From positions 30,710 through 94,709 of IMG/VR virus record IMGVR_UViG_3300021399_000109: a stretch of 64,000 nt of DNA; one strand, given 5' to 3'. The translations under genes were made by a program, and so were the position numbers. Positions 11,101 through 63,901 of this stretch are shown piece by piece (position 1 is the stretch's first letter; each line of letters starts with the position of its first letter). Source of the DNA: a virus. Lineage: Duplodnaviria; Heunggongvirae; Uroviricota; Caudoviricetes. The notes under the pieces were generated by a model. That model made no database searches. It was not told the origin of the DNA and worked only from the letters and a program-made list of their open reading frames with translations.

Positions 11101-13544
11101 TCTCCTTGGAAATCATTTACATAAGAAACAATTAATGTTTTTAATCTTTCTTTTACTTCAGCTATATTCGCTTTAATTTGTTCTGAATTTTGTGGAGAAT
11201 TAATCATATCTAAATTTAATTGATTTAAAGTATTATAATCCTCTACTATTTTTTTCCCTACTATTTTTTTATCTGTAGAATATAATAAGTCTTTTCCTGT
11301 TTTACCTTTTGAAAATTCTATGTTATCGAAATTTTTTCTATTTTGATTAATTATTTGTAAAGAGTCAAAATATCTTTTTAAATCAATTTCTCCACTCTCT
11401 CCACCTAAAGAAATTCCTCTGATTTTATTAAATAATTCCATTAAATTATTTAATAATTCAATAAGTCTTTTTATATCACCTTCTGATTTTCCTACATCCA
11501 TATAGCCAACAGCATGTCCAATATCTATTATAGCATTTTTAACATCTGCGGCTTTTTGTTGAACACTATCTAATGATGTATTAACCTCAGTTACAGCTTC
11601 AGAAGCTTCATGGGATTCTTTTTCTAAAGTATCCATAGCCTGAGAAGCTGTTTCTGTACCTGTTTGATTTTTTACTTCTTTTGTCACTTCTTGACTGGTT
11701 CTAACTTGTTCTTCAGCTTTTTTTTCTTCTATTAATGCTTTTTTTCTATATTCTAATCCTTTTTCAAAATCAAGATTCTTACCAAATTTTTCATCCCAAT
11801 CTTTATAACCTAAAGACATTAATTCTTGTTTTATTTCACTTATTTTTTGTTTTAATTTTTCATATGCTTGTGTATATTTTTCAGGGTCTTGAATTTTTTC
11901 TAATTGTTCAGAAGGTTTTTTTAAATCTTTCTCTAATTTTTCTATCCTTTTTTGCCGTAAATCTTCATAAATACCTTCTTTATTTAATCTTGTAAAACCC
12001 CTTTGTTGAAATAAATTATCTGTTTCAACTCCAAGTTCTTTTAACTTATTTATTAATTCATTTACTTCATTTTCAATTGCTTCATATGCCTGTAAATAAT
12101 TTTTAGGGTCAGAATTTTTTTGAACTACAGAAGCTAATCCAGAGTTTAATTCTTTAAGTCTATTTTTAACATTAGCTATTTGTTGAGTGGTAGCTTGTTC
12201 ATCAAGTCTAGATTGTTTTCCCTTTTCTAAATCTAAATTTTTTTCATATTTAGATTCCCAACTCATTCCTTTATTTTGAGTTGTTTCATCTTTTTGTAAT
12301 AAAGGATAAAATTTTAAATATTCTTCTTTAGCTTTAGCAATTTCAGTAGCTAATTTTTTATATTCTTCTACATATTTATTAGGGTCTTTTACTTTATTTA
12401 ATTTTTTTTCTATTTTATCAACATCCCCTACAGCTTTTAATCTCTGTTTTTCTCTTATTTGCTCTTCTTCTCTTTTTTTCATTTCTTCTGCTCTTTGTTG
12501 TTCTGCTAATGTTTGTTTATTTTCTTCTTCTTTTAAATATTTCCAAGCATTAGCCATCTTAGGAGCAATTTTTTCTAACTCTTCTAAAGTGCCTCCTAAT
12601 TCTGTGTAGGCTCTAATCATTTCATACACGTTTTCTTTTTCCATTATACTTGCATTAGTTTTTACTTGTTGTGTCGTTCCAAGCATTTTTATTTTTTCTA
12701 TTTTAGCTAATTCTTGTTCCATTTTTTCTTTTTCTGTCAATTCTTTAGAAGAAGAATCTGAAGTAGCAGGAACTGTTGTTGGTTTAGGTGTTATTGGTTT
12801 AGTTGTTGTCGAAGGTTTTTGGGTAGAATCATTTTTATTATTCTTTTTATTATTAGTATTTTGAGAATTAGATGCTATTTTATCCTGTTCTTCTTTAAGT
12901 TCTTTTAAATTTTCTGTTGCTTTTTTTGCTTCTTCTCCTACTTTTTCTAATCCATCTGCTTGTTCTTTTAAAGCAATATTTAATTTTCCATTAGCTAAAT
13001 CATCTGTAACTTGTTTAATCTCTTTAATATCCGTATGGATTTCATCTAATTTACTTTCTAAATCAGAAGCTTGCCCAGTTCCTTCTCCTACATTTTTCCC
13101 AATATTAGCAATAGCATTTTTAATCATTTTATTTTTGTCTTCGCCATTACCCTTTTCTATTTGAGAAGCTTCTCTTAATAATTTTTCTACTTGTGTATTA
13201 TTAAAATGACCAATAATTGTTTTTTCTTGTTCTGAATTATTTCCTAATTGTCTATTTAATATACCAATTTTATTTATAAGATTATCTATATTAGAAATAG
13301 CAGTAGTTACATCTGCCCCGTTTAAGCTTTCTGCTAATAAAGAATCAATATTTAAGCCTTCTTTAAAATCTGTATTTAATTTATCTGCTAATTCTCTTAT
13401 TTTTTTTTCAAAATCTTTATTGTTTTCTAATTCTGCATTAAGTTCAATTTTATTATCTAAAGCCATTTTTTTTAATGCTTTAGCAATTTCTCCTGTATCT
13501 TTTAAATAAAATTGTAAACCTATCCGTTTAACAGCATCAGCCAT
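8190..13544 (-). CDS. Tape measure protein, 5' exon (1785 codons)
   Basis: Long coiled-coil ORF with strong RBS. TP901-family core at its end (DFDSALAEMQKVS...IIDVINKLGNDFPISTEGLATAL...AAALVTAG). The ORF-track tail MILCLKN...LIA is intron sequence. Confidence 0.9.
10341..10576 (-). repeat. Pro/Gln-rich tandem low-complexity tract within tape measure
   Basis: Degenerate CAACC(T/G/A)-type units encoding QPQPQ, QPTQPQ and QQRPQ repeats. Confidence 0.9.
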
Positions 13545-24777: not shown

Positions 24778-26385
24778 TTATCCCCTCGCAGTTTCTCTTT
24801 TTGTTCTACTAGCTTCTCCATCATCTGTTAAATCTGTATTATCAGAAGTTGGTCTTCCACCTGTAACGGGGTCAGTTGTACCACTACTGACTTCATCAGA
24901 ACCTGAAGTAAAGCTAGAGTTTAAAGGATAAATAAATTTATCTTGTAATCCTAAAACTTCATTTTCAAGATAATTTAAAGCTAATGTATCTAATTCACTA
25001 AATCCATTTAAAGTATTGTAAGCCAGTTTAGTAGGCAAAGAATATTGAGCCGCTTCTAATAAAGATTTTTTTAAATCATCCTGAGTATAAATAGAAGCAT
25101 GAAGAAATTTTACTTTAGACGGATTAGAAACATAATAATGCATAAAAGTATTTACATAAGCTTGAGTTTGGGGAAGTAAGGATGCTATTGCAAATTCTGT
25201 GTCTACTTTTAAAGCAGTCAAAACTTCAGTCGTACCAGTTAGTTCTGTTGAATTAAGAACTTGACCACCACCACCAGAATTAAGAATATTTTTTGTAGCA
25301 TTAGATACCCTGTTTACATCATTAGTATCATTATCATCAAAATTAATAGTCTGTAATTTTCCCGGCACAATAGCCGCAGAAGTATACGAAGGTAAAGCTT
25401 CATTTAACATTCTATTAAAATACTTAATTGCTAATTCAGGGTCAACTTTCCAATCATCAATATTCTTAGAACCTGTAATAGTCTCTAATTCTAACCATAC
25501 TAATTTATAAATAGCTTGTGCATCAGCTATTGCCTGAATATCTTTAACGTCTTCTAATTGAATTAAATCAGGCAGTAATCCCATAAAAGGTAAAATATGA
25601 AGTTGCCAATCTTCAGCACTATATTTTAAACAACAAGAATACTCTTCAGGAACTATCTGCCATCTCCCATTCATAGTATCTTTTTGATATTCTTTATACA
25701 TTGATTGAAATGGTTCACCTAATAATTCAAGCATGTATTCATTGGTTCCTGTAAAATAATCCATTCTCATTGCAAAGCAATAAGTTCCCCTCATATACCG
25801 TCCTTTAATTTGACAATAATCAGCAGGAAGTGGCATAATAAAGAATCCTGTATCATCATAAAAATGAACTCCATAAAAAACATCTTGAATAAAGCATGTA
25901 AGATATACTTTCAACATCTCTCTACGCAATTCCATATTATCTAATGTAACAAGTGTTTCATAATAAGACGATAATATATCATCCGTATTATTATCTTCTG
26001 TTAAAGAATAATTAGGAATTACAGACCTTGCATCTAGATTAAACATAGAAGCATTATAAATGACCAATCTCCTGTAAAGCTGAGAACGATACAAAAGATA
26101 CCATGAAAGATTTCTTAATCTGCTTTCATTACTTCCTACATTTCGTAAATAAGTAAGAATATCTTCTTTCGAAAAAGCATTTGTGGTTTTAGTCGGTGTC
26201 CTTTGTAAGTCTGTCAATAATTTTAATCCTTCTTCAGCTTTTTCAAAATTAATTTGAGTTAATTCATTAGCATGTTGGCTAAAAAAATTTCTCGCTTCAG
26301 AAGCTGACATTCTTTTATTATTTTCATTGATATTAGAAGGTGCTGTGTTATTAACACCTTTTTTTCTTTTCATTTGTCGTGCCAA
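24778..26385 (-). CDS. Portal protein
   Basis: 535 aa directly after terminase; SPbeta-like order. Confidence 0.75.
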   Translation of the reverse strand: MARQMKRKKGVNNTAPSNINENNKRMSASEARNFFSQHANELTQINFEKAEEGLKLLTDLQRTPTKTTNAFSKEDILTYLRNVGSNESRLRNLSWYLLYRSQLYRRLVIYNASMFNLDARSVIPNYSLTEDNNTDDILSSYYETLVTLDNMELRREMLKVYLTCFIQDVFYGVHFYDDTGFFIMPLPADYCQIKGRYMRGTYCFAMRMDYFTGTNEYMLELLGEPFQSMYKEYQKDTMNGRWQIVPEEYSCCLKYSAEDWQLHILPFMGLLPDLIQLEDVKDIQAIADAQAIYKLVWLELETITGSKNIDDWKVDPELAIKYFNRMLNEALPSYTSAAIVPGKLQTINFDDNDTNDVNRVSNATKNILNSGGGGQVLNSTELTGTTEVLTALKVDTEFAIASLLPQTQAYVNTFMHYYVSNPSKVKFLHASIYTQDDLKKSLLEAAQYSLPTKLAYNTLNGFSELDTLALNYLENEVLGLQDKFIYPLNSSFTSGSDEVSSGTTDPVTGGRPTSDNTDLTDDGEASRTKRETARG

Positions 26386-29646: not shown

Positions 29647-30858
29647 TTAATCTATTATAAACTTATAAGTTTCATTATGTCCATATATTTCATTAAATCC
29701 AAATATTTTTACAGCCCCATGAGTTCTTTTTAAAATTGAATGACTATAAGGGTCTGCTCCAATAAAAGATGGACATACTAATACTTCTTTATCAAAAGTT
29801 GAATAAGCGCCAATTGTAATTTCTTTAGAACAATGTTCATGCCCAATAATAAGATAATCTACAGGTTTTGCTAAATAATTGCTAACATCATCAATAGCTT
29901 TATCTATATTTTTTAATTGATGCCCATGCATAGCATAAATATCATGCGAGTCAATATCCAATTGAATATACATTTGATTTGTATTTGGCAATTTTACTTC
30001 TATTCGTTTATTATCACGCAACAAATCTTTAATATAATGACCAATAATATATTCTACGTCTTCTTCTGCTAATTCATTTGCTTTAGCGTTAAAAGCACGT
30101 ATTTGACTATGATTAGCCCTACCACAGTGATAATAAACAATTTCCGTTACAGAAGATAATTTATTTAAAAATTCTGCAATTAATCTACTTATCTCTACAA
30201 TGGTTCTAACCATAGATGTTTCATTTATTCTTAAATCATTTAAATGAATTAATCCTTGTATAGTATCGCCAAGTTCTAATACATGAAGACGAGTAACCTT
30301 TTTATTTTTTATAAAAAGAATCATTTCATTTAGAAGATAGTCAAAACGTTCTTGTACAATTTCCATTGAATATTCATCGCATCCTTCTTTAAATTTAGCA
30401 CCTGCATGAATATCTGCCAAACACAATACATATTCCTCTTTAAACTTGACTTCAATATTTTTTAAATCTTCAACAGATAAAGGAGAAAAAGAAACTAAAG
30501 GCAGAGAAATTATATTATCAGCAATTTGTTCATAAAATAATTCCCGTCTAGCTTCTTCTCTATCATATTTATTTCTTTCAACATTTAAAGCTTGTATTTT
30601 TTTTCGCTCTTTTTTTAAAGCGTTAATTTTATCATCTAAATCTGGATATTCAGAATTATTTTTTTTCAATCCTTCTTCATAACCTGCCTGATAAGCCTTA
30701 TACCACTTTCTATACTTAGATTCAGAATAGCTTTTGTTCAATAAATCATTTAATATATCCTTTACATCTGTCCAAGTACCAAGTTCATCTTTTAAAGAAC
30801 ACACACGATAAATTAAAGACTCATCAGATTCATTAGGCAATCTTTTTATATCTGTCAT
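29647..30858 (-). CDS. Calcineurin-like metallophosphoesterase
   Basis: ADIHAG, LGDTIQG, ANH, MHGH and GHEH motifs. Confidence 0.85.
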   Translation of the reverse strand: MTDIKRLPNESDESLIYRVCSLKDELGTWTDVKDILNDLLNKSYSESKYRKWYKAYQAGYEEGLKKNNSEYPDLDDKINALKKERKKIQALNVERNKYDREEARRELFYEQIADNIISLPLVSFSPLSVEDLKNIEVKFKEEYVLCLADIHAGAKFKEGCDEYSMEIVQERFDYLLNEMILFIKNKKVTRLHVLELGDTIQGLIHLNDLRINETSMVRTIVEISRLIAEFLNKLSSVTEIVYYHCGRANHSQIRAFNAKANELAEEDVEYIIGHYIKDLLRDNKRIEVKLPNTNQMYIQLDIDSHDIYAMHGHQLKNIDKAIDDVSNYLAKPVDYLIIGHEHCSKEITIGAYSTFDKEVLVCPSFIGADPYSHSILKRTHGAVKIFGFNEIYGHNETYKFIID

Positions 30859-33137: not shown

Positions 33138-33437
33138 TTATTCGTTAACAGCTTCTTTAAGATGCTTGCCAATCTTACACTTAACCACTCGCTTACTAGG
33201 CACTTCTATAGTTCCACCAGTCTGAGGATTCCTACAAACTCTGGCATCTCTAGTAGCAGTAGTTAAACTTAAACCGTCAAAAAGTTTAACCTCTTCACCA
33301 TCAGCAAGAGTATCATATACTACATCTTTAACATTATCCATCACAGCTTTAATATCTTTCTGTGAAAAACCAGTTCTAAAAGCAATAACCTTAATTAAAT
33401 TCGCACTATTCATTTTTTTAATCTCCTTTTTATCCAT
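33138..33437 (-). CDS. hup: HU/IHF-family DNA-binding protein
   Basis: LIKVIA...GEEVKLFDG...RDARVCRNPQTGGTIEVP HU signature. Confidence 0.92.
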   Translation of the reverse strand: MDKKEIKKMNSANLIKVIAFRTGFSQKDIKAVMDNVKDVVYDTLADGEEVKLFDGLSLTTATRDARVCRNPQTGGTIEVPSKRVVKCKIGKHLKEAVNE

Positions 33438-33978: not shown

Positions 33979-36615
33979 TTAATAATTAATATTTTTTTGA
34001 AAACATTTCAAAAATTGTTTTGAATTAACACTATATAAAGTTTGTAATAAAATTATTTTATTTTTATTTAATTTACTTTTTATTTTATTATTATTATTTC
34101 GCATATTAGGAGTAATCATAAATGCCCTATTAATTAACCAAGACATTAATCCTAAATAATTACTAGAAATATTTATTCTTCGAATATCTTCAATCATTTC
34201 ATCAAAATCATTTCTCATTAATAAAAATTCATCTGAATCTTCTTCATATTTATTAACTTGTTTAAACATTAAATTCCAAGAATATTTTTCAATTAATTCT
34301 TCTACAGCTTTACATTTTCTTCTATCAATTTCTAATGGGTAACTAATAAAAAAATTATCCATAGAATAAGTAGGAGTATTTGGAGTAGAAACATTAATAT
34401 TATTTTCATATAAATAATTCATTGGACAAGTTAATTCTGGATTATAAAAAGCTTTTTTCTTTTTAACATTTGTTTTACTACGCTTTATATAACGATTATC
34501 ATTAAATTCTTTTATTGTTTTCCAAAAAATAGGATACCCATTTTCTGATATATTCATATCAGCTTTTATGCGATTTATTTCATTATTTAAGTCAATATCA
34601 AATGTCCTCTTCGCATTATCTATGGCGCATTGCGCAAGCGTACTTAAAATACAAACATAGTCTTTATACTTCTGGTCATCAAAATTATAAGTATATGATA
34701 AACATATTTGTGCTAAATTAGATGAACCACCTATAGCTATTTGACTTGATGCTAAATTATTATCTACTCTGGCAAAATCATATGAAGTATTACTATAAAT
34801 ATTTTTTTCTTTAGGAATATTATTAACTATAGTAGAATAATTTTTATAATATTGTTTAGCACAATTAACTATATCTGATTGATTAGTCGTATAAACCATA
34901 TCTGAGTCTTGGTCTGAGCCATTTGCTCTATCCTGAAAATCTGTATGTAATAAATTAACAGCAATAATAACTTTACCAAGATTAAAATACTTACTTAATC
35001 TATCATCATAATGATTATGTAAATAAAGCATATTCTCTTTACTATTATAAGGATTCCTAAATGATGCTAAATATTCGTTATCTTTAAAACGTTCAGTATA
35101 ACATTGAATACACCCTTCTTCCTGTAAAAAAGTATCATCTTTTTCTACATCTTCTCCTACAGTATAAAGAAGCATAGCATAAGGAGAACCAACTATAGTA
35201 AGATTATCAGCATTATTTATTACTTTACCAACTTTCACATTTTTTATATAATTAGTTAAAATTATTTTCCGTCTTTCTTTAAAATAAGAACTATATACAA
35301 AATCTGGGTCTTGTTCAACTAAAGCTATCAATACATCATAATCATTTGAAAAATTATTATTCTTTTTAAGATAATCAAGAAAGGCTTTGTTATCTGTTTT
35401 TAACATCTTTATATAATTAGCAGAACAAGCAACAATACCTTCCATTTTATTAATATCAAGAGCATTAATCATTTGGTATGACATTTGTTGTACATTACCC
35501 AATTTACTTGAATGAGAAGTTTTGACAATTCCAAACATTGAGTCATTATCTTCAACAACTCTTTGACACCAATATTCATATGAAATATTAAATTTTAACC
35601 ATTTCATAGCGTTGTCTGTAGTTACTAGTTTAATATCTTTGACTTTATGTTTAATACCAAACATATCTTCAATTTCTGCTATATCATATTTATCACCATA
35701 ATAGTCTTTAAACCATAATTGAAGATTAGTATCAAAACAAGCCATTTTACACATATGCTGTCTTAATAACACATAGCCATCTGCCCATTCTGGAAAAATA
35801 GAATGGTCAATTAAACCCTGTCCATCAAATAATGTATTCTTTAATTGATAATCTTTTTTTCGTACTGCTATACATTCTTTATTTTCATTCGTTTCAATAC
35901 TTACAACATCTCTATTAAAATAAGAATCAACATCTTTTAATATCAAAATATCATGTGGGTCGATTTTAATTTTACCAACAATCGTACTTGTGACCAATGA
36001 AGAATAAGCACCAATTTCCACAATAGGGGCATTTTTTTCTGGAAGTTGTATTCCCATATATAAATAATTTCTTGCAACTTCATATAATTCTTCCCTAATA
36101 AACATACAAGAACCTTTTTTAGCTTTTCCTGCTGTTCTATAAAGCATTTTGTAATGAATTTTTTCAGACTCAATAATTTTTCCACTTTTATTATATGTCT
36201 TCCAAAAAATATCTACTCCATCTTTATAAAAAATATGACGTAACACATCCTTACTATTTTTTACATAATTATCTTTATTCTCTTCAGCTTTCTTTTTTAT
36301 TTCTTCTAAACGATTTAATTTTTCTATTTTTTGTTCTTCAGTTAGTTTGTCATTTATTTTAGTTTCTTCAATTAATTTCTTTAAATGTTTACTTTCGTCT
36401 TCATAACTTCGTGAACCATATTTAAATTCAATACATATTATATCTCTGGTTGATTCACCTTTCCAAGTTTTTAATCCATGTTTATCCATAAAGTCTTTAA
36501 AAAGACTATTAGTAAGCATAGCAGGTTTCATATCATAATTTTCACGTACACCATGATTAACTTCATATATAGAACCTGCTACAAAATTCCAAATTTTAAC
36601 TCCATAGATAGACAT
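33979..36615 (-). CDS. yonO: YonO-like single-subunit (two-barrel) RNA polymerase
   Basis: 878 aa; RTAGKAKKG, DGQGLI, RQHMCK, FRNP and the metal-binding loop NGSDQDSD; located just before HU and the morphogenesis genes as SPbeta yonO is. Confidence 0.8.
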   Translation of the reverse strand: MSIYGVKIWNFVAGSIYEVNHGVRENYDMKPAMLTNSLFKDFMDKHGLKTWKGESTRDIICIEFKYGSRSYEDESKHLKKLIEETKINDKLTEEQKIEKLNRLEEIKKKAEENKDNYVKNSKDVLRHIFYKDGVDIFWKTYNKSGKIIESEKIHYKMLYRTAGKAKKGSCMFIREELYEVARNYLYMGIQLPEKNAPIVEIGAYSSLVTSTIVGKIKIDPHDILILKDVDSYFNRDVVSIETNENKECIAVRKKDYQLKNTLFDGQGLIDHSIFPEWADGYVLLRQHMCKMACFDTNLQLWFKDYYGDKYDIAEIEDMFGIKHKVKDIKLVTTDNAMKWLKFNISYEYWCQRVVEDNDSMFGIVKTSHSSKLGNVQQMSYQMINALDINKMEGIVACSANYIKMLKTDNKAFLDYLKKNNNFSNDYDVLIALVEQDPDFVYSSYFKERRKIILTNYIKNVKVGKVINNADNLTIVGSPYAMLLYTVGEDVEKDDTFLQEEGCIQCYTERFKDNEYLASFRNPYNSKENMLYLHNHYDDRLSKYFNLGKVIIAVNLLHTDFQDRANGSDQDSDMVYTTNQSDIVNCAKQYYKNYSTIVNNIPKEKNIYSNTSYDFARVDNNLASSQIAIGGSSNLAQICLSYTYNFDDQKYKDYVCILSTLAQCAIDNAKRTFDIDLNNEINRIKADMNISENGYPIFWKTIKEFNDNRYIKRSKTNVKKKKAFYNPELTCPMNYLYENNINVSTPNTPTYSMDNFFISYPLEIDRRKCKAVEELIEKYSWNLMFKQVNKYEEDSDEFLLMRNDFDEMIEDIRRINISSNYLGLMSWLINRAFMITPNMRNNNNKIKSKLNKNKIILLQTLYSVNSKQFLKCFQKNINY

Positions 36616-55305: not shown

Positions 55306-55629
55306 TTATTTTAAATTATAATAAGTATCATAGTTATCTGGTTCAAAGGCTATCTCTTCATTTTCAGTTATAATTGAATCTTCATATTTTTTCACAAGTG
55401 ATTCTTCATATAATATATCTGCTATATCTTGTAATAAACAGTAGCCATCACATTCTTCTCCATCATATTTTACTGTTTCAGTTAATATGTCTAAAACATA
55501 ATGGGAATCTATTTGTTTATGAAGTAAATTAAAACATACTTTTAATAAGTAAGTTTTCCGACTTTCTACTGTAGAGTATTCAGGATTAATATTATTTGAA
55601 TTATTATAAATTACGTTCATTTTAATCAA
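55306..55629 (-). CDS. Hypothetical protein, first gene of the leftward arm
   Basis: 107 aa ORF with AGGAG RBS. Confidence 0.55.
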   Translation of the reverse strand: MIKMNVIYNNSNNINPEYSTVESRKTYLLKVCFNLLHKQIDSHYVLDILTETVKYDGEECDGYCLLQDIADILYEESLVKKYEDSIITENEEIAFEPDNYDTYYNLK

Positions 55630-55698
55630 TCTCCTTTTTTTTATTTTTTTAGTCGTTAAAAACTATTTTTTTTAAGTAATATTTTAAATGTCATTTTA

Positions 55699-55727
55699 AT
55701 AATAGCATAAAAAATAAGAGGTGTCAA
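55699..55727 (-). promoter_or_regulatory. Sigma-A-type promoter starting the leftward arm
   Basis: TTGACA-17-TATTAT with TG extension. Confidence 0.75.
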
Positions 55728-55840
55728 GGGGGGAATTTAAAAAAATATGTACCCCCCTGTTCCTGTTTTTCCTGTTCTTTCCTATTAATATATTATTAGT
55801 ATATTATTAGTATATTATATTAAATTATCATATTAATTAA

Positions 55841-55879
55841 TGTGGATAATGTGGATAGAGTGGATAATTTTGTGGATAA
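55841..55879. promoter_or_regulatory. Cluster of four DnaA-box-like 9-mers (origin candidate)
   Basis: TGTGGATAA (55841), TGTGGATAG (55850), AGTGGATAA (55859) and TGTGGATAA (55871); two are perfect reverse complements of TTATCCACA; AT-rich tract adjacent. Confidence 0.7.
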
Positions 55880-56034
55880 CATAAATAAAATATTTAATAT
55901 TAAATTATAAATAAAATTGTGTTTTGGGAGAAATGACGATAAAAGTAGCGATAATAAGGGATAATAAGAAGATAATAATTAAATAGGTAATTAAATAGGT
56001 AAAAACGTGGTTGAAATTATGTGGAATTATGGTT

Positions 56035-56063
56035 AGGATGTAGTCAGGATGTAGTCAGGATGT
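56035..56063 (+). repeat. 11-bp tandem repeat AGGATGTAGTC x2 plus partial third copy
   Basis: Read directly; other short tandem duplications flank it. Confidence 0.85.
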
Positions 56064-56252
56064 GTGGATGAAGTTCGTGCGGTGCGAGCCGATTTTCGGG
56101 TCTGCTCCATGGTTAAAAGTAGCCCTCCGATGTGAAAACAAACTATAATTTGTTGTTGCAATCCATAGGGAACGGATGTATATTTGAGTTGTGGAAAACA
56201 ATTTCCCGAAAAACAATACACAAACAGATGTTCGAAAAGGAGGAACAAAACA

Positions 56253-57149
56253 ATGTCAAGGAAAAATGCAAAGTGTACAAGGTGTGGTGTTATCATGGTA
56301 GCGGCTTCAATGGTAGCTACAGGATGCGCAAATAGGGGAGTTAACAAACGGTCTTTTATGTGCCCTGAATGTGCAAAAACAAATGAACGGTACGGAGCAA
56401 GGAACAATAAAGAAGTTGGTGGAGTTGAAAACGGTTTGCGCTATGGTATCGAGTTCGAATCAACTGCATCAACTGAATACTTCAGAAACATGATGTTTCG
56501 ATACGATTATATCGCCACTCATGACGGCTCTCTTAACAGTACAGGAGAGCGGCGGTATACAGTGGGTCGGAACGGCTGGTACACTGAATCATCCTGCGAA
56601 TATGTCAGTGCAACTAACAAGGGTTTAAAGCGATTTGCTAAGCAGTTCCTTGAAATTGAGAAATGCCACAACGAGGGACATGTTGAGTGGGACGATTCTT
56701 GTGGTACACATTGCCACATCTCTATCAACAACATGGAGAATGGTGAGATGAGTATGATTCGGGCCTATTACAATTCGCTATTCATGCCTTTACAGGCTGT
56801 AATGACTGCTAACCCTGTAAAGACTGAAGAGTTCTTTGGCCGCTATTTCTCATACTCCTTTGCTCGTGAAATCACGGAAAATACAAGAATGCGTGAAGAA
56901 GACCATGACGACCGTTACGCATGGATTAACGCCGTTCACAATAGCAATATTGAATTCCGTTTAAACAAGTTCCGCACGGCTGACCAAATGCTGACTTGTA
57001 TCAAATTTGAAACATGGGTTGTTAAGACCATTCTTAACAACTTCACAAGTAAATACAATAGCATCCCTCGTACGGAGCGCAAACAATTAGCAGTGAAAAC
57101 GGCAAACAAACTTGCCAAAAAGTTAGAATCTATCTACGCTGAAATGTAA
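56253..57149 (+). CDS. Putative amidoligase (COOH-NH2 ligase type 2) with N-terminal Zn finger
   Basis: AGGAGG RBS before ATG 56253; CTRC...CPEC; YGIEFE, HDGSL, DDSCGTHCHI, RYAWIN and IEFR motifs. Confidence 0.8.
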   Translation: MSRKNAKCTRCGVIMVAASMVATGCANRGVNKRSFMCPECAKTNERYGARNNKEVGGVENGLRYGIEFESTASTEYFRNMMFRYDYIATHDGSLNSTGERRYTVGRNGWYTESSCEYVSATNKGLKRFAKQFLEIEKCHNEGHVEWDDSCGTHCHISINNMENGEMSMIRAYYNSLFMPLQAVMTANPVKTEEFFGRYFSYSFAREITENTRMREEDHDDRYAWINAVHNSNIEFRLNKFRTADQMLTCIKFETWVVKTILNNFTSKYNSIPRTERKQLAVKTANKLAKKLESIYAEM

Positions 57150-57157
57150 CATTTTCG

Positions 57158-57194
57158 GGAATGGTTTCCAGTTGGAAACCATTCCTTTTTTTTT
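57158..57194 (+). terminator. Rho-independent terminator
   Basis: GGAATGGTTTCC-AGTT-GGAAACCATTCC plus T9. Confidence 0.9.
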
Positions 57195-57851
57195 GCCCTT
57201 CTATCCAATAATTGTTTTTAACAACTAAAATTTTGCTTTTCTCGTTTCCCTTTTTTTCAAGTTGTTAAAAACAATAAATAATCCTTAATTGTTTTCAACA
57301 ACTAAAATTTTGCAATCCCATGGTATCAACCTATAGTTTTCAACAACTAACTTTTACCCGTCCTTTTTTCAAGTTGTTAAAAACAATTATTTTCTCCTAC
57401 GTTTTCAAGTTGTTAAAAACAATTGGCAATCCTAAATTGTTTTTAACAACTAAAATTTTGCAATTCCCTTTTACCAGTTGTTAAAAACAATAATTAATCC
57501 TATTTCCATGTACTCCCCTTTTTTTAAGTTGTTAAAAACAATGTTTCCCTATGCGTCATTTTCAAGTTGTTGAAAACAATAATCAATCCTATTATTTTCA
57601 AGTTGTCAAAAACAATTGGCAATTCGAAAAAAGACAAGTTGTTAAAAACAAAATTCCGTTTTCTGAATTGTTAAAAACAATCTTAATAATTTTCAAGTTG
57701 TCGAAAACAATTAAGCCCGATTCAAATTTTCAAGTTGTTAAAAACAATGTTTTATTCCTTCAGTTGTTAAAAACATTCTTTTATCCGTTAACTGTTAAAA
57801 ACTATTATATTAATTGTCAAAAACTTTATATTGCCTATGTTCAAAAAGTCA

Positions 57852-58158
57852 GTTGTTCAAAACTATTTTTCTGTTTTTCAGTTGTCAAAAACATCATTTT
57901 AATTTTTCAAGTTGTCAAAAACTTTTAACAATTATCTCAATTGTTAAAAACTATTCTAATATTTCTCAAGTTGTCAAAAACTTTTACATTTTTCTTTAAT
58001 TGTTAAAAACTATCCATATATTCCGTTAATTGTTAAAAACATTTAATAATCATTTCAATTGTTAAAAACTATCTTAATATTCTGATAATTGTTAAAAACT
58101 ATTAACAATTATCTTAATTGTTAAAAACATTCAAAGATATTAATCAGTTGTTAAAAAC
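57852..58158 (+). repeat. Phased direct-repeat array: 11 motif copies at alternating 29/30-bp spacing
   Basis: Starts at 57852, 57881, 57911, 57940, 57970, 57999, 58029, 58058, 58088, 58117 and 58147; spacers differ in sequence. Confidence 0.9.
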
Positions 58159-58712
58159 TATCTGTTTATTGATTAGTTTTTAACAACTAACCTTTTATAT
58201 AATTGTTTTTAACAACATTTAATATTATTTATATTTTATCAATTGTTAAAAACATTCATTAATTAACATAGTTTTTAACAACTGGATAAATCATAGTTAA
58301 TTGTTAAAAACTATCTATTATTTTTCAAGTTGTTAAAAACAATTAAAGATTATTAATAGTTTTTAACAACTATATTTTTACCTATTCACTATTATACATG
58401 ATATATAACATATACTTTATATATAATATCTATTCTATATATAATCTATATTCCATATAGATTATATATTCCATATAGAATATCTATCAACAATATAACG
58501 GTTTTCAAGTTGTTAAAAACAATAATCAATCCTAAACTGTTTTTAACAACTTTGTTCTCTTCTCTGCCCTTCTATCTTCCAATAATGGGAACCATAACGC
58601 AAACAAAAAAATAAGTTGTTAAAAACAAAAAACACTCCTGACACTCCGGCAACTTGTTTCTTCCTATATAAGGAATTAAAAAAATCTTTTTTCAAAAAAT
58701 CAAAAAAATGTG

Positions 58713-58741
58713 TTGACGGTTCTTTTATAGTGTAGTATTGT
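58713..58741 (+). promoter_or_regulatory. Cassette 1 promoter
   Basis: A-tract UP element, TTGACG-17-TATTGT. Confidence 0.7.
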
Positions 58742-58787
58742 TAACTCAACCGAAAAACATTTTTTTATTTCATAGGAGGTCTTACTC

Positions 58788-59078
58788 ATGAAAAAAGCAA
58801 ACGCAACTCTTGCAACTCTTGACAATGGTTTCTATTTTGTCCCCATTGCGGAGGGTCTTCTTGCCTATGTAATGTGTACAGATGGGCTTAAATGTTTCAC
58901 TACCAACGAAAACCCGATTGAGATTGAGGGTTTAGCATATGAAAACGCTATGGAGTACTGGGACGCTCTCAATAATAACACTTTAGAGATGGTAGAACAT
59001 ACAAAAAAAGAAGCAAAAGAAATTATCAGTAGAGAATTAAATGGTCGCAAAATTTACGAAGTTTTCCTTGTCGATTAA
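58788..59078 (+). CDS. Cassette 1 early protein (96 aa)
   Basis: AGGAGG RBS; terminator 59088-59121. Confidence 0.85.
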   Translation: MKKANATLATLDNGFYFVPIAEGLLAYVMCTDGLKCFTTNENPIEIEGLAYENAMEYWDALNNNTLEMVEHTKKEAKEIISRELNGRKIYEVFLVD

Positions 59079-59610
59079 CACAAGGGAACAGGGAACATGA
59101 AAATGTTCCCTGTTTTTTTTTATGCCTATAGGAAAATTGTTTTTAACAACTTAAAAAACAGAAACGGAACCATAAAAAAATAAAGTTGTTAAAAACAATT
59201 AATAATCCAAAATTATTTTTAACAACTGTAAAAATATAAAAATATAAAAATATAATTTTTAACAACTGAAAAATAAAAAAGAAAAATCAGTTGTTAAAAA
59301 TAATAGAAATAATTCCTATTAAAGCAATATGTTTAACATACTTTATAATAATAGTTTTTAACAACTAAAAATCAATCCATACAGGAGAACAAGAATAATT
59401 GTTTTTAACAACTAAAAAATTCCTACGTCCTGCAAGGCAAATAATATTTCCTGCAAGCGAAACAATAAAATTAAGTTGTTAAAAACAATTGCCCGAACAA
59501 GGGAAACCGAACAAGGGAAAATTAAATTGTTAAAAACAATTATTTTCATTCAAGCGAAATAAAAAATCAAGTTGTTAAAAACAAATACCCAAAACAAAAT
59601 AAAAAAAGTG

Positions 59611-59639
59611 TTGACTTAACCAAAAAAAGGGAGTATTCT
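59611..59639 (+). promoter_or_regulatory. Cassette 2 promoter
   Basis: TTGACT-17-TATTCT. Confidence 0.75.
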
Positions 59640-59684
59640 ATAACCATAAACAAATACCGCACCAATACAGGACAGGAGGATAAC

Positions 59685-60023
59685 ATGGTCATTAAAGTTA
59701 AAAGCTGGTTTTATCAGCAGGAACAGACAAAAGCAGGCAGATATAACTTTACTTTAAAATGGGATACAGTGATTAAAAATACAGGAACAGTTAACCCTGA
59801 GACCCGCTCAAAATGGAAGGAAGTCGGGAACTGTTTTTATGGCAAAGTGGTTAAGGAAACAGAGAAGGCAATACAGGTTGAGCTGTTTTACTGGAACCTT
59901 AACAAGAGCCGTAATTATCGCTATTTAACCGATTTACCGCTTGAAAAAGATAAGCGGTGGAAAACATGGATACCCAAATCTGTTTTACTGGATGAGGGTA
60001 TGCCGAAATATTTTCCCAATTAA
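59685..60023 (+). CDS. Cassette 2 early protein (112 aa)
   Basis: AGGAGG RBS; ETEKAIQVEL...WIPKS; terminator 60025-60052. Confidence 0.85.
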   Translation: MVIKVKSWFYQQEQTKAGRYNFTLKWDTVIKNTGTVNPETRSKWKEVGNCFYGKVVKETEKAIQVELFYWNLNKSRNYRYLTDLPLEKDKRWKTWIPKSVLLDEGMPKYFPN

Positions 60024-60256
60024 TAAAAAAAGCGGAATTTTCCGCTTTTTTTATTTTGTCCCTAATTTTAAGTTGTTAAAAACAATCACAAAAACAATTG
60101 TTTTTAACAATTGTTTTTTTCTCTATAAAATTTAAGTTGTTAAAAACAAAAAGGAATCAACAATAGTTTTTAACAACTAAAAAAATTCTTACCGTTTAAC
60201 ATTTTCAAGTTGTTAAAAACTTTAAAAAAAATTTTTTTATTTTTTTTAAAAAGGGA

Positions 60257-60285
60257 TTGACTTTCCAAAAAAGATAAGATATACT
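60257..60285 (+). promoter_or_regulatory. Cassette 3 promoter
   Basis: TTGACT-17-TATACT. Confidence 0.8.
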
Positions 60286-60333
60286 TAACACATCAAGCGA
60301 ACAACAAATATTTTTTTACAGGAGGATAAAATA

Positions 60334-60546
60334 ATGACAATTTACACGGAAGAGAATGGCAACATCTATAACGAGAATCATGAGGAAGTCTGGGAAGGCT
60401 TCAAAGAGGGGGATGTTTTACTCCTTGAAAATATGCCTTTTGACCTGTGGGATGAATCCACATGGTCATTTATTCACGCAACAGGCGTTGCAATTTATAC
60501 AGGGAGGGGGTGGAGTAATCAGTACGAAAACGAAAACATTGCTTAA
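60334..60546 (+). CDS. Cassette 3 early protein (70 aa, acidic)
   Basis: AGGAGG RBS; terminator AAAGTGCC-GAAA-GGCACTTT 60549-60574. Confidence 0.85.
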   Translation: MTIYTEENGNIYNENHEEVWEGFKEGDVLLLENMPFDLWDESTWSFIHATGVAIYTGRGWSNQYENENIA

Positions 60547-60760
60547 ATAAAAAAGTGCCGAAAGGCACTTTTTTATTTTTTTTTGTTTCTTTAAAGTTTT
60601 TAACAACTAAAAAAATACAAAAAGAAAAATAAAGTTGTTAAAAACAATCAAACGCAAATAAAAAAAATCAGTTGTTAAAAACAATTAGCAATCCTAAATT
60701 ATTTTTAACAACTGTAAAAATATATAAAAAAACAAAGTTGTCGAAAACAATAAAGAATCC

Positions 60761-60820
60761 TTAATAGTTTTTAACAACTGAAAAATTGAAAAAATTTTTT
60801 CAGTTGTTAAAAACTATTAA
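60761..60820. repeat. Perfect 25-bp inverted repeat formed by two motif copies
   Basis: TTAATAGTTTTTAACAACTGAAAAA / TTTTTCAGTTGTTAAAAACTATTAA with 10-nt loop. Confidence 0.9.
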
Positions 60821-60855
60821 GTCCCAATTTCCAGAAAAAAAATTTAAAAAAATAG

Positions 60856-60884
60856 TTGCATTATCTAAAATATTCTGTTATGCT
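60856..60884 (+). promoter_or_regulatory. Cassette 4 promoter
   Basis: TTGCAT-17-TATGCT with TG extension. Confidence 0.7.
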
Positions 60885-60928
60885 ATATACAACTTAAAAC
60901 ACCGCACCAAATACAGGAGGATGATATT

Positions 60929-61201
60929 ATGAAGAACCTTATTTGTTTTGATTTATTTAGTCGTGGTTTTGTTCCTAAAGTTGATATAGAGGGAACAGTT
61001 TCCGAAAATCTGTTTGTTTATAAAAAAGGTAGTATCTGCAATTTCACTGAAGTTACAGTTTGCGAGTGTAGCCCTGAAAAAGTCGTGGTTGTTATCCATA
61101 ACGAATACTACGATGGAGAAACAGACAGAGAAGAAACAAAGTTCTATAAAATGCGTCCCGAAGAAATGAAAGATTTTTTTGACAAACATTATATAAGATA
61201 A
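60929..61201 (+). CDS. Cassette 4 early protein (90 aa)
   Basis: AGGAGG RBS; terminator AAAGTGCC-AAAA-GGCACTTT near 61200-61228. Confidence 0.85.
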   Translation: MKNLICFDLFSRGFVPKVDIEGTVSENLFVYKKGSICNFTEVTVCECSPEKVVVVIHNEYYDGETDREETKFYKMRPEEMKDFFDKHYIR

Positions 61202-61502
61202 AAGTGCCAAAAGGCACTTTTATTTTTTTATATACTTTTTTAAAGTTTTTAACAACTGAAAAAAATATATAAAAAAAATCAGTTGTTAAAAACAATTAAT
61301 AATCAATCAATAAAAATAGTTTTTAACAACAACAAAAATATTAACCAATAAATCAGAAAAGAAAAGTTTTTAACAACTGAAAAATTATAAAAAATCAGTT
61401 GTTAAAAACAAAAATAAATAACCAGATAACTAAGAGGGAAAGTTTTTAACAACTGAAAAAAAATATCCGAAAAAATTTTTTAAAAAAAATTCAAAAAAAC
61501 AC

Positions 61503-61530
61503 TTGCAATTTAAAATCAATCTGCTATAAT
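61503..61530 (+). promoter_or_regulatory. Cassette 5 promoter
   Basis: TTGCAA-16-TATAAT with TG extension. Confidence 0.75.
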
Positions 61531-61579
61531 AAAGACATCAGCAAACAACACAACACATTTTTTTACAGGAGGTCACACA

Positions 61580-61816
61580 ATGACAAAATACACACAGAAG
61601 GCACTTCGAGAAATGGTTAGGAATAATGTAGCCGTAAACATTACCAATGGCACGAACGAAACCAGAAAAGAAATCGAAAAAAAAGAAGGGTATTTAACCC
61701 AAATCGGTTATGCTTGCGGTATTTACGGTTGCAATGGAATGCTCTTTAAGGGGCATAACACCAATGAATTGTATGCCGTAACAGACAGAACAATGGCTAT
61801 TTACATCTTCGGATGA
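61580..61816 (+). CDS. Cassette 5 early protein (78 aa)
   Basis: AGGAGG RBS; GYACGIYGCNG; terminator ATGAGGGA-GCAA-TCCCTCAT 61818-61847. Confidence 0.85.
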   Translation: MTKYTQKALREMVRNNVAVNITNGTNETRKEIEKKEGYLTQIGYACGIYGCNGMLFKGHNTNELYAVTDRTMAIYIFG

Positions 61817-62115
61817 TAAAAATGAGGGAGCAATCCCTCATTTTTTTATTTCTATATTCCCTTAAAGTTTTTAACAACTAAAAAAATATAAAGGGAAAAA
61901 TAAAGTTGTTAAAAACAATTAAAAAAAGAAAAGTTTTTAACAACTGAAAAAAATAAAATTAGTTGTTAAAAACAATAAATAATCAATCAACAAAAATAGT
62001 TTTTAACAACTGAAAAACAATAACTAAAAAAATCAGTTGTCAAAAACAATAAAAATCTATAATAGTTTTTAACAACTTTAGAAAAAATTTTTTAAAAAAA
62101 AATAAAAAAAATATA

Positions 62116-62144
62116 TTGACTTTTTAAAAAAATCATATTATGAT
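62116..62144 (+). promoter_or_regulatory. Cassette 6 promoter
   Basis: TTGACT-17-TATGAT. Confidence 0.8.
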
Positions 62145-62188
62145 TAATACAACAACAAACAAGCCACCAATCAAAGGAGAATAGTATT

Positions 62189-62365
62189 ATGGCAAGAACA
62201 GCAAAGGAATATAGCGAAATCTTACGGTCTGTAATAACAATGAGTGTTCAAGAAATCTTCGCAAATCCCAATTATGAGACAAACGATTACTTACAGGGAT
62301 ATGCCTCGGGATTGCTTGAAGCAATCGACAAAATTAATAAAAGTCAGTTTTTAGTAGAAGATTAA
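62189..62365 (+). CDS. Cassette 6 early protein (58 aa, MARTAKEYSEILRSV...)
   Basis: Hand-translated, below track cutoff; AAAGGAG RBS; terminator 62373-62404. Confidence 0.8.
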   Translation: MARTAKEYSEILRSVITMSVQEIFANPNYETNDYLQGYASGLLEAIDKINKSQFLVED

Positions 62366-62599
62366 AACTGATAAAAACAGGGGCTGAAAAGTCCCTGTTT
62401 TTTTATATCTATCTTTTTTTAGTTGTTAAAAACAATAAGCAATCAATCATTATTTTTAACAACTAAAAAATTGTATTTTTTCAAATTGTTAAAAACAATA
62501 AAAATATAATATAGTTTTTAACAACTAAAAACATAATTATATTTTCCAGTTGTTAAAAACTATAATTAATAATTGGGATAAAAAAAATAAAAAAAATAC

Positions 62600-62628
62600 T
62601 TGACAATAAAAATATAAACCATTATAAT
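62600..62628 (+). promoter_or_regulatory. Cassette 7 promoter
   Basis: Perfect TTGACA-17-TATAAT. Confidence 0.85.
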
Positions 62629-62674
62629 TAAGGTACAATTAATTAGTTGCAAATAATTGCGGAGGGCAAAAAAA

Positions 62675-63082
62675 ATGACTATTAAAGAAAATGAAAATTT
62701 TAATAATATTTCACTTTATCCCCTTAATATAAATGAAAAAAATTTGAAAAAGGCAGGTAAGTCTTACCATATGAACAACCGAAATAACAGGTTTAAAAAT
62801 GTTTTGGAAATTGAGAGAGAAAAACTAAAAATTGACAAAAGTTTCTTGGTTGATAAAGGGCATAAAAACGGTCAGGAAGTCCACGTTGTAACAACAAACG
62901 GCATTATTTTTATCTATAACTTTATGAAATTATTTTCTTGTTCGCAAAATGCACTTGTTACAGTTTTAATAGCAAGACCTAATCAGGTGACAAGATTATA
63001 TAACGCTTGCAATCTCACACCAGACAAAGAAATTATTAATAAATGCTTTGAACATGTAAAGCAAGGATTGAATAATTGTTAA
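62675..63082 (+). CDS. Cassette 7 early protein (135 aa)
   Basis: GGAGG RBS before ATG 62675; VDKGH..G.EVH and VTVLIARPNQ; terminator 63088-63118. Confidence 0.8.
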   Translation: MTIKENENFNNISLYPLNINEKNLKKAGKSYHMNNRNNRFKNVLEIEREKLKIDKSFLVDKGHKNGQEVHVVTTNGIIFIYNFMKLFSCSQNALVTVLIARPNQVTRLYNACNLTPDKEIINKCFEHVKQGLNNC

Positions 63083-63329
63083 AAGGGAAACAGGGATTTA
63101 AATCCCTGTTTCTTTTTTAATTTTAAGGGAAACATAGTTTTTAACAACTAAAAAAATAAAATTTAAGTTGTTAAAAACAATAAACAATCCAAAATTGTTT
63201 TTAACAACTTAAAAAAAAATAAAAAAATATCAGTTGTTAAAAACAATTAAACACGAAACAAAATTTTAATTGTTAAAAACAATAAATTAATAAATCAAAA
63301 ATTTTTTTATAATTTAAATAAAAAATAGC

Positions 63330-63358
63330 TTGACAATTATATAAAAAAAGGTTATCAT
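63330..63358 (+). promoter_or_regulatory. Cassette 8 promoter
   Basis: TTGACA-17-TATCAT. Confidence 0.8.
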
Positions 63359-63407
63359 TAAGATACAAAAACAAAGCAAACAATCAACCAAAAAAGGAGA
63401 TTTAATT

Positions 63408-63698
63408 ATGAGCAGAACATGGACACAGGACGAAATTAGAGTGCTTATACAGACCAATGATAAGGTTTTGTATGGGGCTTTAAAAAAGCTTTACGCTTGC
63501 CAGACAGCAGAAGAGCAAGCTACAAGTACAACAAATGTACAGAATGGGACAGGGTTTAACGGAGTTGATGCTCCTATTCTGACAAGTTTTGCACAGTTTT
63601 TAGAACGTACTGGATTTTTAACTCCCAGACAGAAAGCACTTGCCAGAAAGAAGTTAAAAAAATATAATAGGCAGTTGACAGCATTAGCCAACGCCTAA
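63408..63698 (+). CDS. Cassette 8 early protein (96 aa)
   Basis: AAAGGAG RBS; QTAEEQ...NGTGFNGVDA...KKYNRQL; terminator 63698-63734. Confidence 0.85.
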   Translation: MSRTWTQDEIRVLIQTNDKVLYGALKKLYACQTAEEQATSTTNVQNGTGFNGVDAPILTSFAQFLERTGFLTPRQKALARKKLKKYNRQLTALANA

Positions 63699-63901
63699 AA
63701 AAGAAAAGCGGATTTTTCCGCTTTTCTTTTTTTTATAAAACTTTTCAAGTTGTTAAAAACAATAAATCCTTAAACGGAAACAATTATTTTTTTACAGTTG
63801 TTAAAAACAATAGTAAAAAAATAGTTTTTAACAACTAATTTTTTAAAAAATAGTTTTTAACAACTGTAAAAAAAATATTTAAAAAAAAATAAAATAATTA
63901 C

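Follow-up and report, generated by a model that had tools for sequence, protein, structure and literature searches.

The phased repeat array of a large, SPbeta-like rumen phage was found to be the densest, largest and most regular member of a family of operator-like sites, rather than a solitary locus. The array lies within a stretch of 64,000 nucleotides (designated here as the window, to which all positions refer unless genome positions are specified) of a 158.7-kb IMG/VR phage record. Approximately 135 copies of the same site (with at most one mismatch) are located within genome positions 87.9-104.9 kb, i.e. in 17 kb of the 158.7-kb phage genome, where they occur in both orientations and in front of approximately 25 promoters. 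Such a distribution is operator-like and not that of a local, single cis-acting locus. The reading favoured here, with moderate confidence, is that the array represents a close-packed binding array for a putative phage-specific early-gene regulator, for which it may act as a nucleation site or sink.

Eleven TTGTYAAAAAC cores (with one mismatch at most), all on the + strand, were identified with starts at 57853, 57882, 57912, 57941, 57971, 58000, 58030, 58059, 58089, 58118 and 58148, corresponding to core-to-core spacings of 29, 30, 29, 30, 29, 30, 29, 30, 29 and 30 bp. The strict 29/30 alternation of 11 co-oriented cores that had been described initially was recovered at the same positions. 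This strictly phased array (57853..58158, + strand), with its 59-bp two-site higher-order unit, is included in a series of 22 successive sites of the same orientation (57478..58158, + strand), in which neighbouring sites lie 36-51 bp apart on the left and 22-30 bp apart on the right. This series in turn belongs to a 39-site cluster of ~1.4 kb on mixed strands (57214..58626), which fills a gene-free interval whose previously assigned limits (57150-58787) hold and which constitutes the longest non-coding stretch in the region. Inverted two-site composite elements of 44 bp with an AATCCT centre, repeated as ~75-bp units, occupy positions 57214-57476 of this cluster. Beyond the phased array, orientation is mixed from 58176 onwards, as had been noted, with seven sites (- - + - + + -) spaced 28-38 bp apart (58176..58369). 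These are followed by an AT-rich tract (58380..58495) containing ~18-bp repeats, with sites on both flanks; the tract includes the two previously reported copies of TATATTCCATATAGA, at 58447-58461 and 58465-58479.

The window contains 102 matches to TTGTYAAAAAC (with at most one mismatch), compared with 11.05 ± 3.2 in dinucleotide shuffles, and since none of 100 shuffles reached 102 matches, chance is excluded as an explanation for the enrichment of the core. A single Logan contig from another sample spans positions 57562-58111 with three mismatches and no gaps; apart from this contig, Logan contigs break or are scrambled within the repeats, and did not provide usable ends, depth or variants. 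An Rfam search (cmscan) of positions 55500-60000 at E <= 1 returned only two sub-threshold chance rows, both of which are located outside the array.

Autocorrelation of positions 57840-58170, which had been proposed as a check of the phasing, was highest at lag 59 (0.673), followed by lags 118 (0.62), 29 (0.556) and 30 (0.532), relative to a shuffle maximum of 0.483, and fits a two-site unit of 59 bp. The spacers, previously considered unique, are instead diverged members of two related and alternating classes (18-nt and 19-nt), which generate a 59/118-bp higher-order repeat. Mean pairwise identity was 0.58 within the 18-nt class (letter-shuffle mean of 0.40, maximum of 0.52) and 0.43 within the 19-nt class (shuffled mean of 0.34, maximum of 0.46). 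Both the two spacer classes and the better fit of periods 59 and 118, which outscored 29 or 30 in Tandem Repeats Finder, are in line with an alternative explanation, according to which the array is a by-product of tandem amplification (by slippage or unequal crossing-over) of a 59-bp two-site operator module; single sites may then bind a regulator, the array itself being functionless. Much of each 'spacer' belongs to the conserved flanks of the site, T-rich on the 5' side and WAT on the 3' side, and because the site, with these flanks, is longer than its core, only ~5 bp are free per array unit.

The full site is asymmetric and approximately 16 bp in length, reading about AGTTGTTAAAAACWAT, with the T-rich 5' flank preceding the TTGTYAAAAAC core. 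An A is present at position -2 in 97% of sites and a G at position -1 in 81%, positions -9 to -4 are rich in T, and the core is followed by W-A-T. Exact copies of the core number 118 in the whole genome, 117 of which are found within genome positions ~86-106 kb. Around 96 of the 135 sites are located outside the main array, in ~25 clusters upstream of promoters (~26 clusters altogether), and both orientations are used (49 forward and 36 reverse exact 13-mers). Many of the array sites are off optimum, carrying an A for the G at -1 or a C at core position 5, which would fit a graded, concentration-dependent filling of the array. In this genome and in those of its relatives, distances below a floor of 22-26 bp hardly occur between neighbouring sites; ++ and +- pairs are most often 29-30 bp apart, and -+ pairs 36-39 bp. 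As 29-30 bp is the modal spacing above this floor, the array can be regarded as the close-packed state of the site, and ~29.5 bp from centre to centre appears to be the minimum packing distance in the array. On B-DNA, 29.5 bp corresponds arithmetically to 2.81 turns, such that each site is turned by ~-69 degrees relative to the one before and a full turn takes five sites (147.5 bp). Positions 56000-60000 had no blastn match in the phage collection, a scan of IMG/VR for two phased cores yielded a single match, on one unrelated contig, and nothing relevant was found in the literature on Tsamsa-type phages, 949-type phages or the motif string.

The genomic surroundings place this site family in a recognisable phage type. 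Genes for a portal protein (24778-26385), a YonJ-like exonuclease (29647-30858), a YonN-like HU protein (33138-33437) and a YonO-like RNA polymerase (33979-36615) are located in the window, YonG, YonD and YorF domains (Pfam) are also encoded by the genome, and, as judged from these similarities, the genes and their order match those of Bacillus phage SPbeta. All genes to the left of 55.6 kb are located on the - strand, while those from 56.25 kb onwards are on the + strand. The first + strand gene (56253..57149), which is the upstream neighbour of the array, encodes a protein with an N-terminal four-Cys Zn-ribbon and an Amidoligase_2-like domain; PF12224 was matched by 23 of 28 homologues of this protein, and the gene is syntenic with the array in all relatives examined. 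A search of viral contigs for loci related to this neighbour protein found none. The left boundary of the array is formed by the intrinsic terminator of the amidoligase gene, consisting of a 13-bp stem followed by a T run (57157..57186, + strand).

Downstream of the array, which has no promoter of its own, a sigma-A-type promoter (TTGACG-17-TATTGT; 58713..58741, + strand) precedes the first early cassette, whose ORF (58788..59078, + strand) encodes an acidic protein of 96 aa without a known family. Eight more intergenic clusters, with 3-7 site copies each, are found within 59139..63863, each preceded by a terminator and followed by the next UP-element with its sigma-A-type promoter, and the series of clusters extends past the window to genome position 104.9 kb. 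In total, ~25 single-gene cassettes follow the array (genome positions 89.5-105 kb), each comprising a small ORF with a strong RBS and usually a terminator. Every cassette has a near-consensus TTGACA-17-TATAAT promoter with an A-rich UP-like region, 65-75 bp before the ATG. The 3-7 site copies per cassette, in both orientations, lie between the preceding terminator and the promoter, at 29-53 bp from the -35 element. Given 3-7 sites before each of ~25 strong promoters, the protein that reads them would most likely be a global regulator of the early arm, and probably a silencer or shut-off factor. Certain features of this arrangement sit less easily with the regulator reading, as simple repression would usually involve sites over the promoters rather than upstream of them, where the present sites are located, and as the promoters are near consensus, so that activation seems unnecessary.

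Relatives were identified as syntenic contigs through homologues of the neighbouring amidoligase protein. The same core was found in L010, L011, L013 and L029, in which the neighbour protein is 53-59% identical. In L029 (~80% nucleotide identity), the gap following the amidoligase gene measures 1634 bp, compared with 1638 bp here, and harbours 20 co-oriented sites, 11 of which are spaced 29, 30, 30, 29, 30, 30, 30, 30, 29 and 30 bp apart. L013 (neighbour protein 59% identical) has a collinear array with spacings of 28, 29, 30, 29, 30, 29, 29 and 28 bp. Over 290 aligned bp, the L013 array and that of the phage studied here are identical at 107 of 110 core positions (97%) and at 119 of 177 spacer positions (67%), with three gap columns. 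A three-way alignment with L029 and L013 showed that the arrays differ mainly through the gain or loss of whole 29-30-bp units. In L010 and L011 (neighbour protein 57-59% identical), the same core is present in all intergenic regions, while the gap after the amidoligase gene is shorter (0.95-1.2 kb), with co-oriented runs that are all short and irregular and with other repeats (CTGTTCC). L029 retains the AT-rich tract with its flanking sites and L013 likewise has AT-rich tracts, whereas L010 and L011 lack the tract.

Since cores are 97% and spacers 67% identical, and since a spacing of 28-30 bp is kept across lineages, the cores and their approximate spacing are, as these alignments indicate, under purifying selection. 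The arrays of the relatives lack the strict alternation while keeping the approximate spacing, and the 29/30 alternation is hence concluded to be a lineage-specific trace of 59-bp amplification. The initial annotation had suggested that length is conserved while spacer sequence is not; this is borne out by the 28-30-bp spacing in L029 and L013 and by spacers that drift to 67% identity, with the qualification that the spacers are still related. Similarly, its expectation that the spacing would be conserved in related phages is correct for L029 and L013, but not for L010 and L011, which keep the site without the regular array.

These comparisons also bear on the amplification by-product, in both directions. 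The whole-unit gains and losses among relatives and the lack of a regular array in L010 and L011 are as expected from it; however, 9-11 units persist in three lineages in which spacers are down to ~67% and cores remain at 97% identity, almost no sub-unit indels have accumulated, and the position of the array after the amidoligase gene is constant. A functionless array is consequently considered quite improbable. The same observations nevertheless temper the regulator reading, as strict phasing is not essential to a system that L010 and L011 operate without a regular array, and as the 59/118-bp repeat provides a historical cause (tandem amplification) for the 29/30 alternation, which need not be functional in itself.

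In the more distant relatives L024 and L028 (neighbour protein 39% identical), the same architecture is present in the same places with a different, related site, ATTTT[CT]AAAAAT, which is two substitutions removed from TTGTCAAAAAC, a variant of the site found in the phage studied here. Site variants also exist within the clade (TTGTTAAAAAC versus ATTTTYAAAAAT). L028 lies on a 155-kb contig that was binned in a Clostridia MAG of 3.1 Mb, in which 24 of 25 copies of the L028-type site are located on the phage contig. As the site differs between lineages and its copies are confined to the phage contig, it is concluded to co-evolve with the phage lineage, which favours a phage-encoded reader over a host factor.

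The opposing explanation is that a host global regulator or nucleoid protein reads the sites, with the array as a decoy that titrates the factor, or as a platform from which the recruited factor silences or activates the early arm. This would account for the fact that no phage DNA-binding protein could be assigned as the reader; furthermore, phi29 and similar phages carry arrays of host Spo0A boxes, and the phage studied here also has host DnaA boxes near the array. Besides the lineage dependence of the site and its confinement to the phage contig in the MAG, this explanation is countered by the lack of the paired site in 401 sampled Clostridia genomes. In addition, no match of the full site to the consensus sequences of the Firmicute regulators Spo0A, CodY, Rex, TnrA, LexA and DnaA, or to that of IHF, was recognised. 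A host-read site is therefore held to be distinctly unlikely.

Candidate readers were sought among the phage proteins. Six-frame HMM searches of the whole genome gave no match to HTH_3 or RHH_1, and a tblastn search of the genome with SPbeta YopR did not reveal an MrpR/YopR homologue (best E of 3.2), results that weigh against the regulator reading. The only clear DNA-binding domain within the 64-kb window is that of the YonN-like HU protein; its identity to the HU proteins of L010 and L011 is 23-24%, although the site is common to these phages, and this lack of covariation led to its rejection as the reader. Two early proteins were likewise set aside: one of 96 aa (phrog_21015) has homologues in Xanthomonas, Stenotrophomonas and Rhizobium phages, and one of 86/105 aa, the best conserved among the site-sharing genomes, is acidic, which does not suit a DNA binder. 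A lineage-specific early protein of 68 aa (genome positions 94696-94902), for which a confident model of five helices was obtained (pLDDT of 91), may be considered as one candidate reader; a basic protein of 135 aa (62675-63082 in the window) and an HTH_39 protein (genome positions 124803-125039) may be considered likewise. Foldseek comparison of this model with the PDB returned nothing at E <= 0.001, and in VIA-align its best Z was 5.6, the many homeodomain, Myb, MarR and winged-helix rows at Z 4-5 being within the noise for small helical bundles.

An origin of replication was also considered, in which the phased sites would serve as iterons for an initiator and the AT-rich tract at 58380-58495 as the unwinding element, with the dispersed copies as secondary or control sites (cf. 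DnaA boxes and P1 incA). Over the whole genome, cumulative GC skew is lowest at genome position 89 kb, which corresponds to the array, though this minimum coincides with the strand switch and transcription alone can explain the skew. The array is located 1-2 kb from the start point of two divergent gene arms, no non-coding stretch of the region is longer, and the AT-rich repeat tract with flanking sites occurs both here and in L029, with AT-rich tracts in L013; L010 and L011, however, are without such a tract. Moreover, ~96 of the 135 sites are elsewhere, in ~25 promoter-upstream clusters, and no Rep-type family was detected within ±10 kb of the array, the adjacent gene encoding the Zn-ribbon Amidoligase_2-like protein and the replication module (DnaB, primase and Pol III alpha) being situated at genome positions 120-140 kb, i.e. 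30-45 kb from the array. A better candidate is present 2 kb upstream, where four tandem DnaA boxes (two exact TTATCCACA and two with one mismatch; 55841..55879, - strand) in the divergent intergenic region adjoin an AT-rich stretch with 11-bp repeats (55780-55840), an arrangement that is kept in L029. This cluster represents a candidate DnaA-dependent origin that is separate from the array and, from its sequence, both more conventional and likelier than the array. The iteron-like origin that had been put forward for the array does not agree with the spread of sites over ~25 promoter regions or with the lack of a Rep-type gene within ±10 kb, and we judge it unlikely.

The array had further been likened to a partition centromere (parC-, tubC- or parS-like) or a packaging (pac) recognition array, and phased direct repeats in non-coding DNA are indeed reminiscent of those of parC and tubC. 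The 29.5-bp spacing nonetheless differs from the contiguous repeats of 11, 12 and 20 bp of parC and tubC, and the sites are dispersed over 17 kb in ~26 clusters rather than confined to one or a few loci. The suggested search for TubZ, ParA and Rep genes was performed: six-frame HMM searches of the whole 158.7-kb genome revealed no ParA (PF13614 AAA_31 and PF01656 CbiA), ParB_N or tubulin/TubZ match (StbA_N/ParM is not counted, as its control was silent), and neither partition Pfam families nor a Rep-type gene were present within ±10 kb of the array. The sole tyrosine-recombinase-like gene encodes a 317-aa PF00589 protein that aligns with XerC, XerA and XerD and in which the C-terminal Tyr region is kept. 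This recombinase looks Xer-like and catalytic, which suggests integration rather than plasmid maintenance. As regards packaging, the terminase genes are ~30 kb away from the array. Centromere function is accordingly unlikely, and very little credence can be given to the centromere or packaging reading as a whole.

The regulator reading may be formulated as follows. A phage-lineage-specific protein would recognise the asymmetric ~16-bp site and fill the clusters upstream of ~25 sigma-A-type early promoters, and could thereby regulate the whole early arm. On the array, the bound protein would coat ~0.7 kb as a helical and probably cooperative nucleoprotein filament, in which the proteins may spiral round the DNA, or the DNA round them, rather than being aligned on one face. 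The promoter-less array, with its 22-39 close-packed sites, could then constitute a high-capacity nucleation centre, sink or timer that sets the threshold or timing for the filling of the weaker promoter-upstream clusters; alternatively, it may be a boundary that separates the amidoligase/origin region from the cassettes. The nucleoprotein scaffold that was originally proposed is retained in part: phased sites of a protein-binding type, with conserved core and spacing but drifting spacers, make a nucleoprotein array a fair proposition, whereas the segregation, origin or packaging role assigned to it is not supported.

In a more far-reaching version of this reading, which we consider rather unlikely, the DNA-binding protein would have a new fold or belong to a new family and would polymerise cooperatively on the 29.5-bp-phased array. 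The resulting helical filament, with one turn per five sites, would serve as titrating timer or nucleation centre and, all at once, turn ~25 strong early promoters off or hold them silent in the lysogen. If correct, this would amount to a chromatin-like silencing device in a phage. The reader protein, once found, would probably reveal a new DNA-binding family, and together with the array it would illustrate how, in nature, an entire genome arm can be silenced or timed cooperatively by an array of sites. The regular 59-bp two-site unit is a ready substrate for structural work, while the conserved cores and free spacers define targets for mutation. The tempting reading of the array as a centromere or iteron locus is corrected by the present analysis, with the separate DnaA-box cluster as the likelier origin.

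Several known systems share features with the array. The parC-ParR (R1 and pSK41) and tubC-TubR systems, whose centromeres form superhelical or filamentous complexes, and the omega heptads of pSM19035 also consist of phased repeats, presumably coated by a small DNA-binding protein, and omega combines the roles of global promoter regulator and centromere binder in a single protein that acts on arrays of direct and inverted repeats. Their units are, however, contiguous, 7-20 bp long and located beside a par operon, unlike the sites studied here, which are 29-30 bp apart in a genome without a detected ParA, ParB_N or TubZ. Iteron origins and control loci (P1 oriR/incA and lambda ori) and DnaA-box clusters (datA) similarly comprise direct repeats of one protein site beside an AT-rich tract (a resemblance that, for the tract, does not extend to L010 and L011), and the promoter-less array could titrate its binding protein in the manner of incA or datA. 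Conversely, the array has no adjacent initiator gene, its sites extend over 25 promoter regions, its spacing is 29.5 bp rather than ~21-22 bp, and a separate DnaA-box cluster is present 2 kb away.

Protein p6 of phi29 binds every 24 bp, represses the early promoter C2 and activates replication. Common to p6 and the binding proposed here would be a regular multimeric array with a non-integral helical period, wrapped or spiralled DNA and the regulation of early promoters. In contrast to the site family described here, p6 reads bendability rather than a conserved core, and its period is 24 bp (12 bp per half), as opposed to 29.5 bp (9.8 bp per third); we know of no p6 homologue in this phage.

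Global control of early genes by many copies of one operator is known from few systems, among which are the stoperators of L5 and the SPBRE elements of SPbeta. Cluster A mycobacteriophages contain ~24-36 asymmetric 13-bp stoperators per genome, recognised by the L5 repressor gp71; these are single sites, oriented with transcription and located inside transcription units, where they block elongation. As in the phage studied here, many asymmetric sites of ~13 bp are positioned in the non-coding gaps of one genome arm, and their sequence varies by sublineage, as expected for co-evolution with a phage repressor. The present sites differ in being clustered, in both orientations, in terminator-to-promoter gaps and four times more numerous, and no gp71-like HTH protein is recognisable.

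In SPbeta, the SPBRE element is found in early promoter regions and is bound by the master repressor MrpR (YopR) (PMC10516654). The similarity concerns genome organisation, with the YonD/E/F/G/J structural block, the YonN-like HU protein and the YonO-like RNA polymerase on one strand, followed by a strand switch and the early genes, as well as the recurrence of one short conserved element in early-gene promoter regions, which in this phage is present before every early promoter. Conversely, the SPBRE core, common to six MrpR-bound SPbeta promoter regions, is AAAAATATGTATATA-like, whereas the site described here is AGTTGTTAAAAAC; SPBRE occurs approximately once per promoter region, roughly 10 in all, compared with 3-7 sites per promoter and 135 in all in this phage, in addition to the 39-site promoter-less array. 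Moreover, an MrpR/YopR homologue is not detectable here (tblastn E > 3), the sole tyrosine-recombinase-like gene being catalytic-looking and Xer-like. From these comparisons, the array system is nearest to SPBRE/MrpR, with the same phage type and the same logic, yet not a member of that family. It is also larger than either SPBRE or the L5 stoperators, comprising ~135 sites and a conserved 39-site promoter-less array in a 159-kb genome without a recognisable classical repressor.

Four tandem DnaA boxes of the TGTGGATAA type, two exact and two with one mismatch, were identified at window positions 55841-55879, with additional boxes carrying one mismatch each at 56063 and 56190. The tandem boxes adjoin an AT-rich segment (55780-55840) containing 11-bp repeats, and 2.6 copies of a AGGATGTAGTC repeat are also found beside DnaA boxes (56035-56063), all of these elements being located between the divergent genes where the coding strand switches. 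The stretch at 55780-56100 is regarded as a candidate host-DnaA-dependent origin. It is retained in L029, a relative with a collinear site array. In L010, L011, L013 and the sister lineage (L024 and L028) it is absent, the equivalent region being taken up by other tandem repeats (e.g. six copies of TAGATGTTAR in L013).

Within the AT-rich tract of the gene-free interval, a near-consensus promoter-like match (TTGATA-18-TATAAT, 11/12) was observed on the minus strand (window 58461-58490). This putative promoter is directed leftwards into the array and, if real, would yield an antisense non-coding transcript across it.

The corresponding gap in relatives also harbours repeats. In L010 and L011, which lack a regular array, dense CTGTTCC/CCTGTT pyrimidine repeats are present on both sides of the amidoligase gene (L010:10900-11350; L011:9075-9780 and 10950-11340), and the far side of the gap carries complementary GGAACAG-type repeats and minus-oriented sites, so that the gap has a dyad architecture. 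The gap that follows the amidoligase gene in the sister lineage (L024:11050-11270 and L028:7120-7230) contains three to four co-oriented CACCAAAAA repeats, which were not detected in the remaining intergenic regions and represent a second, gap-specific repeat. Metagenomic contigs of closer relatives, recovered through their amidoligases (P0002-P0004, e.g. L012), stop at most ~90 bp past the amidoligase gene, indicating that short-read assemblies break at the repeat array; such arrays are probably under-represented among assembled phage genomes.

Six-frame analysis of the whole 159-kb genome detected no XRE-type HTH_3 or RHH_1 domain, and the only recognizable DNA-binding domains that emerged belong to a YonN-like HU protein (window 33138-33437, minus strand) and to an HTH_39 winged-helix protein of 78 aa (genome 124803-125039). 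Separately, the Pol III alpha gene (genome 132407-137429; L020:18407 to L021:3429) appears to be interrupted by a LAGLIDADG endonuclease ORF, as PHP and DNA_pol3_alpha domains are followed by a 298-aa LAGLIDADG protein and then the HHH_6 C-terminal part.

Comparison of the early arm with those of L029, L013, L010 and L011 revealed that single-gene cassettes have been reordered, gained and lost, with, for example, the 58-, 68-, 96- and 135-aa and DUF8033 cassettes differing in order. The flanking site clusters persist despite this turnover, and may also act as recombination joints in cassette exchange. The most conserved early product is a small, very acidic protein with a C-terminal DEEEDEEW (genome 100384-100644; L019:6384-6644), which shares 84-88% identity with the N-terminal half of proteins 206 aa long in L010 and L011, and which is encoded by the first cassette 3' of the gap in L024 and L028. 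This protein resembles a DNA mimic or anti-restriction protein.
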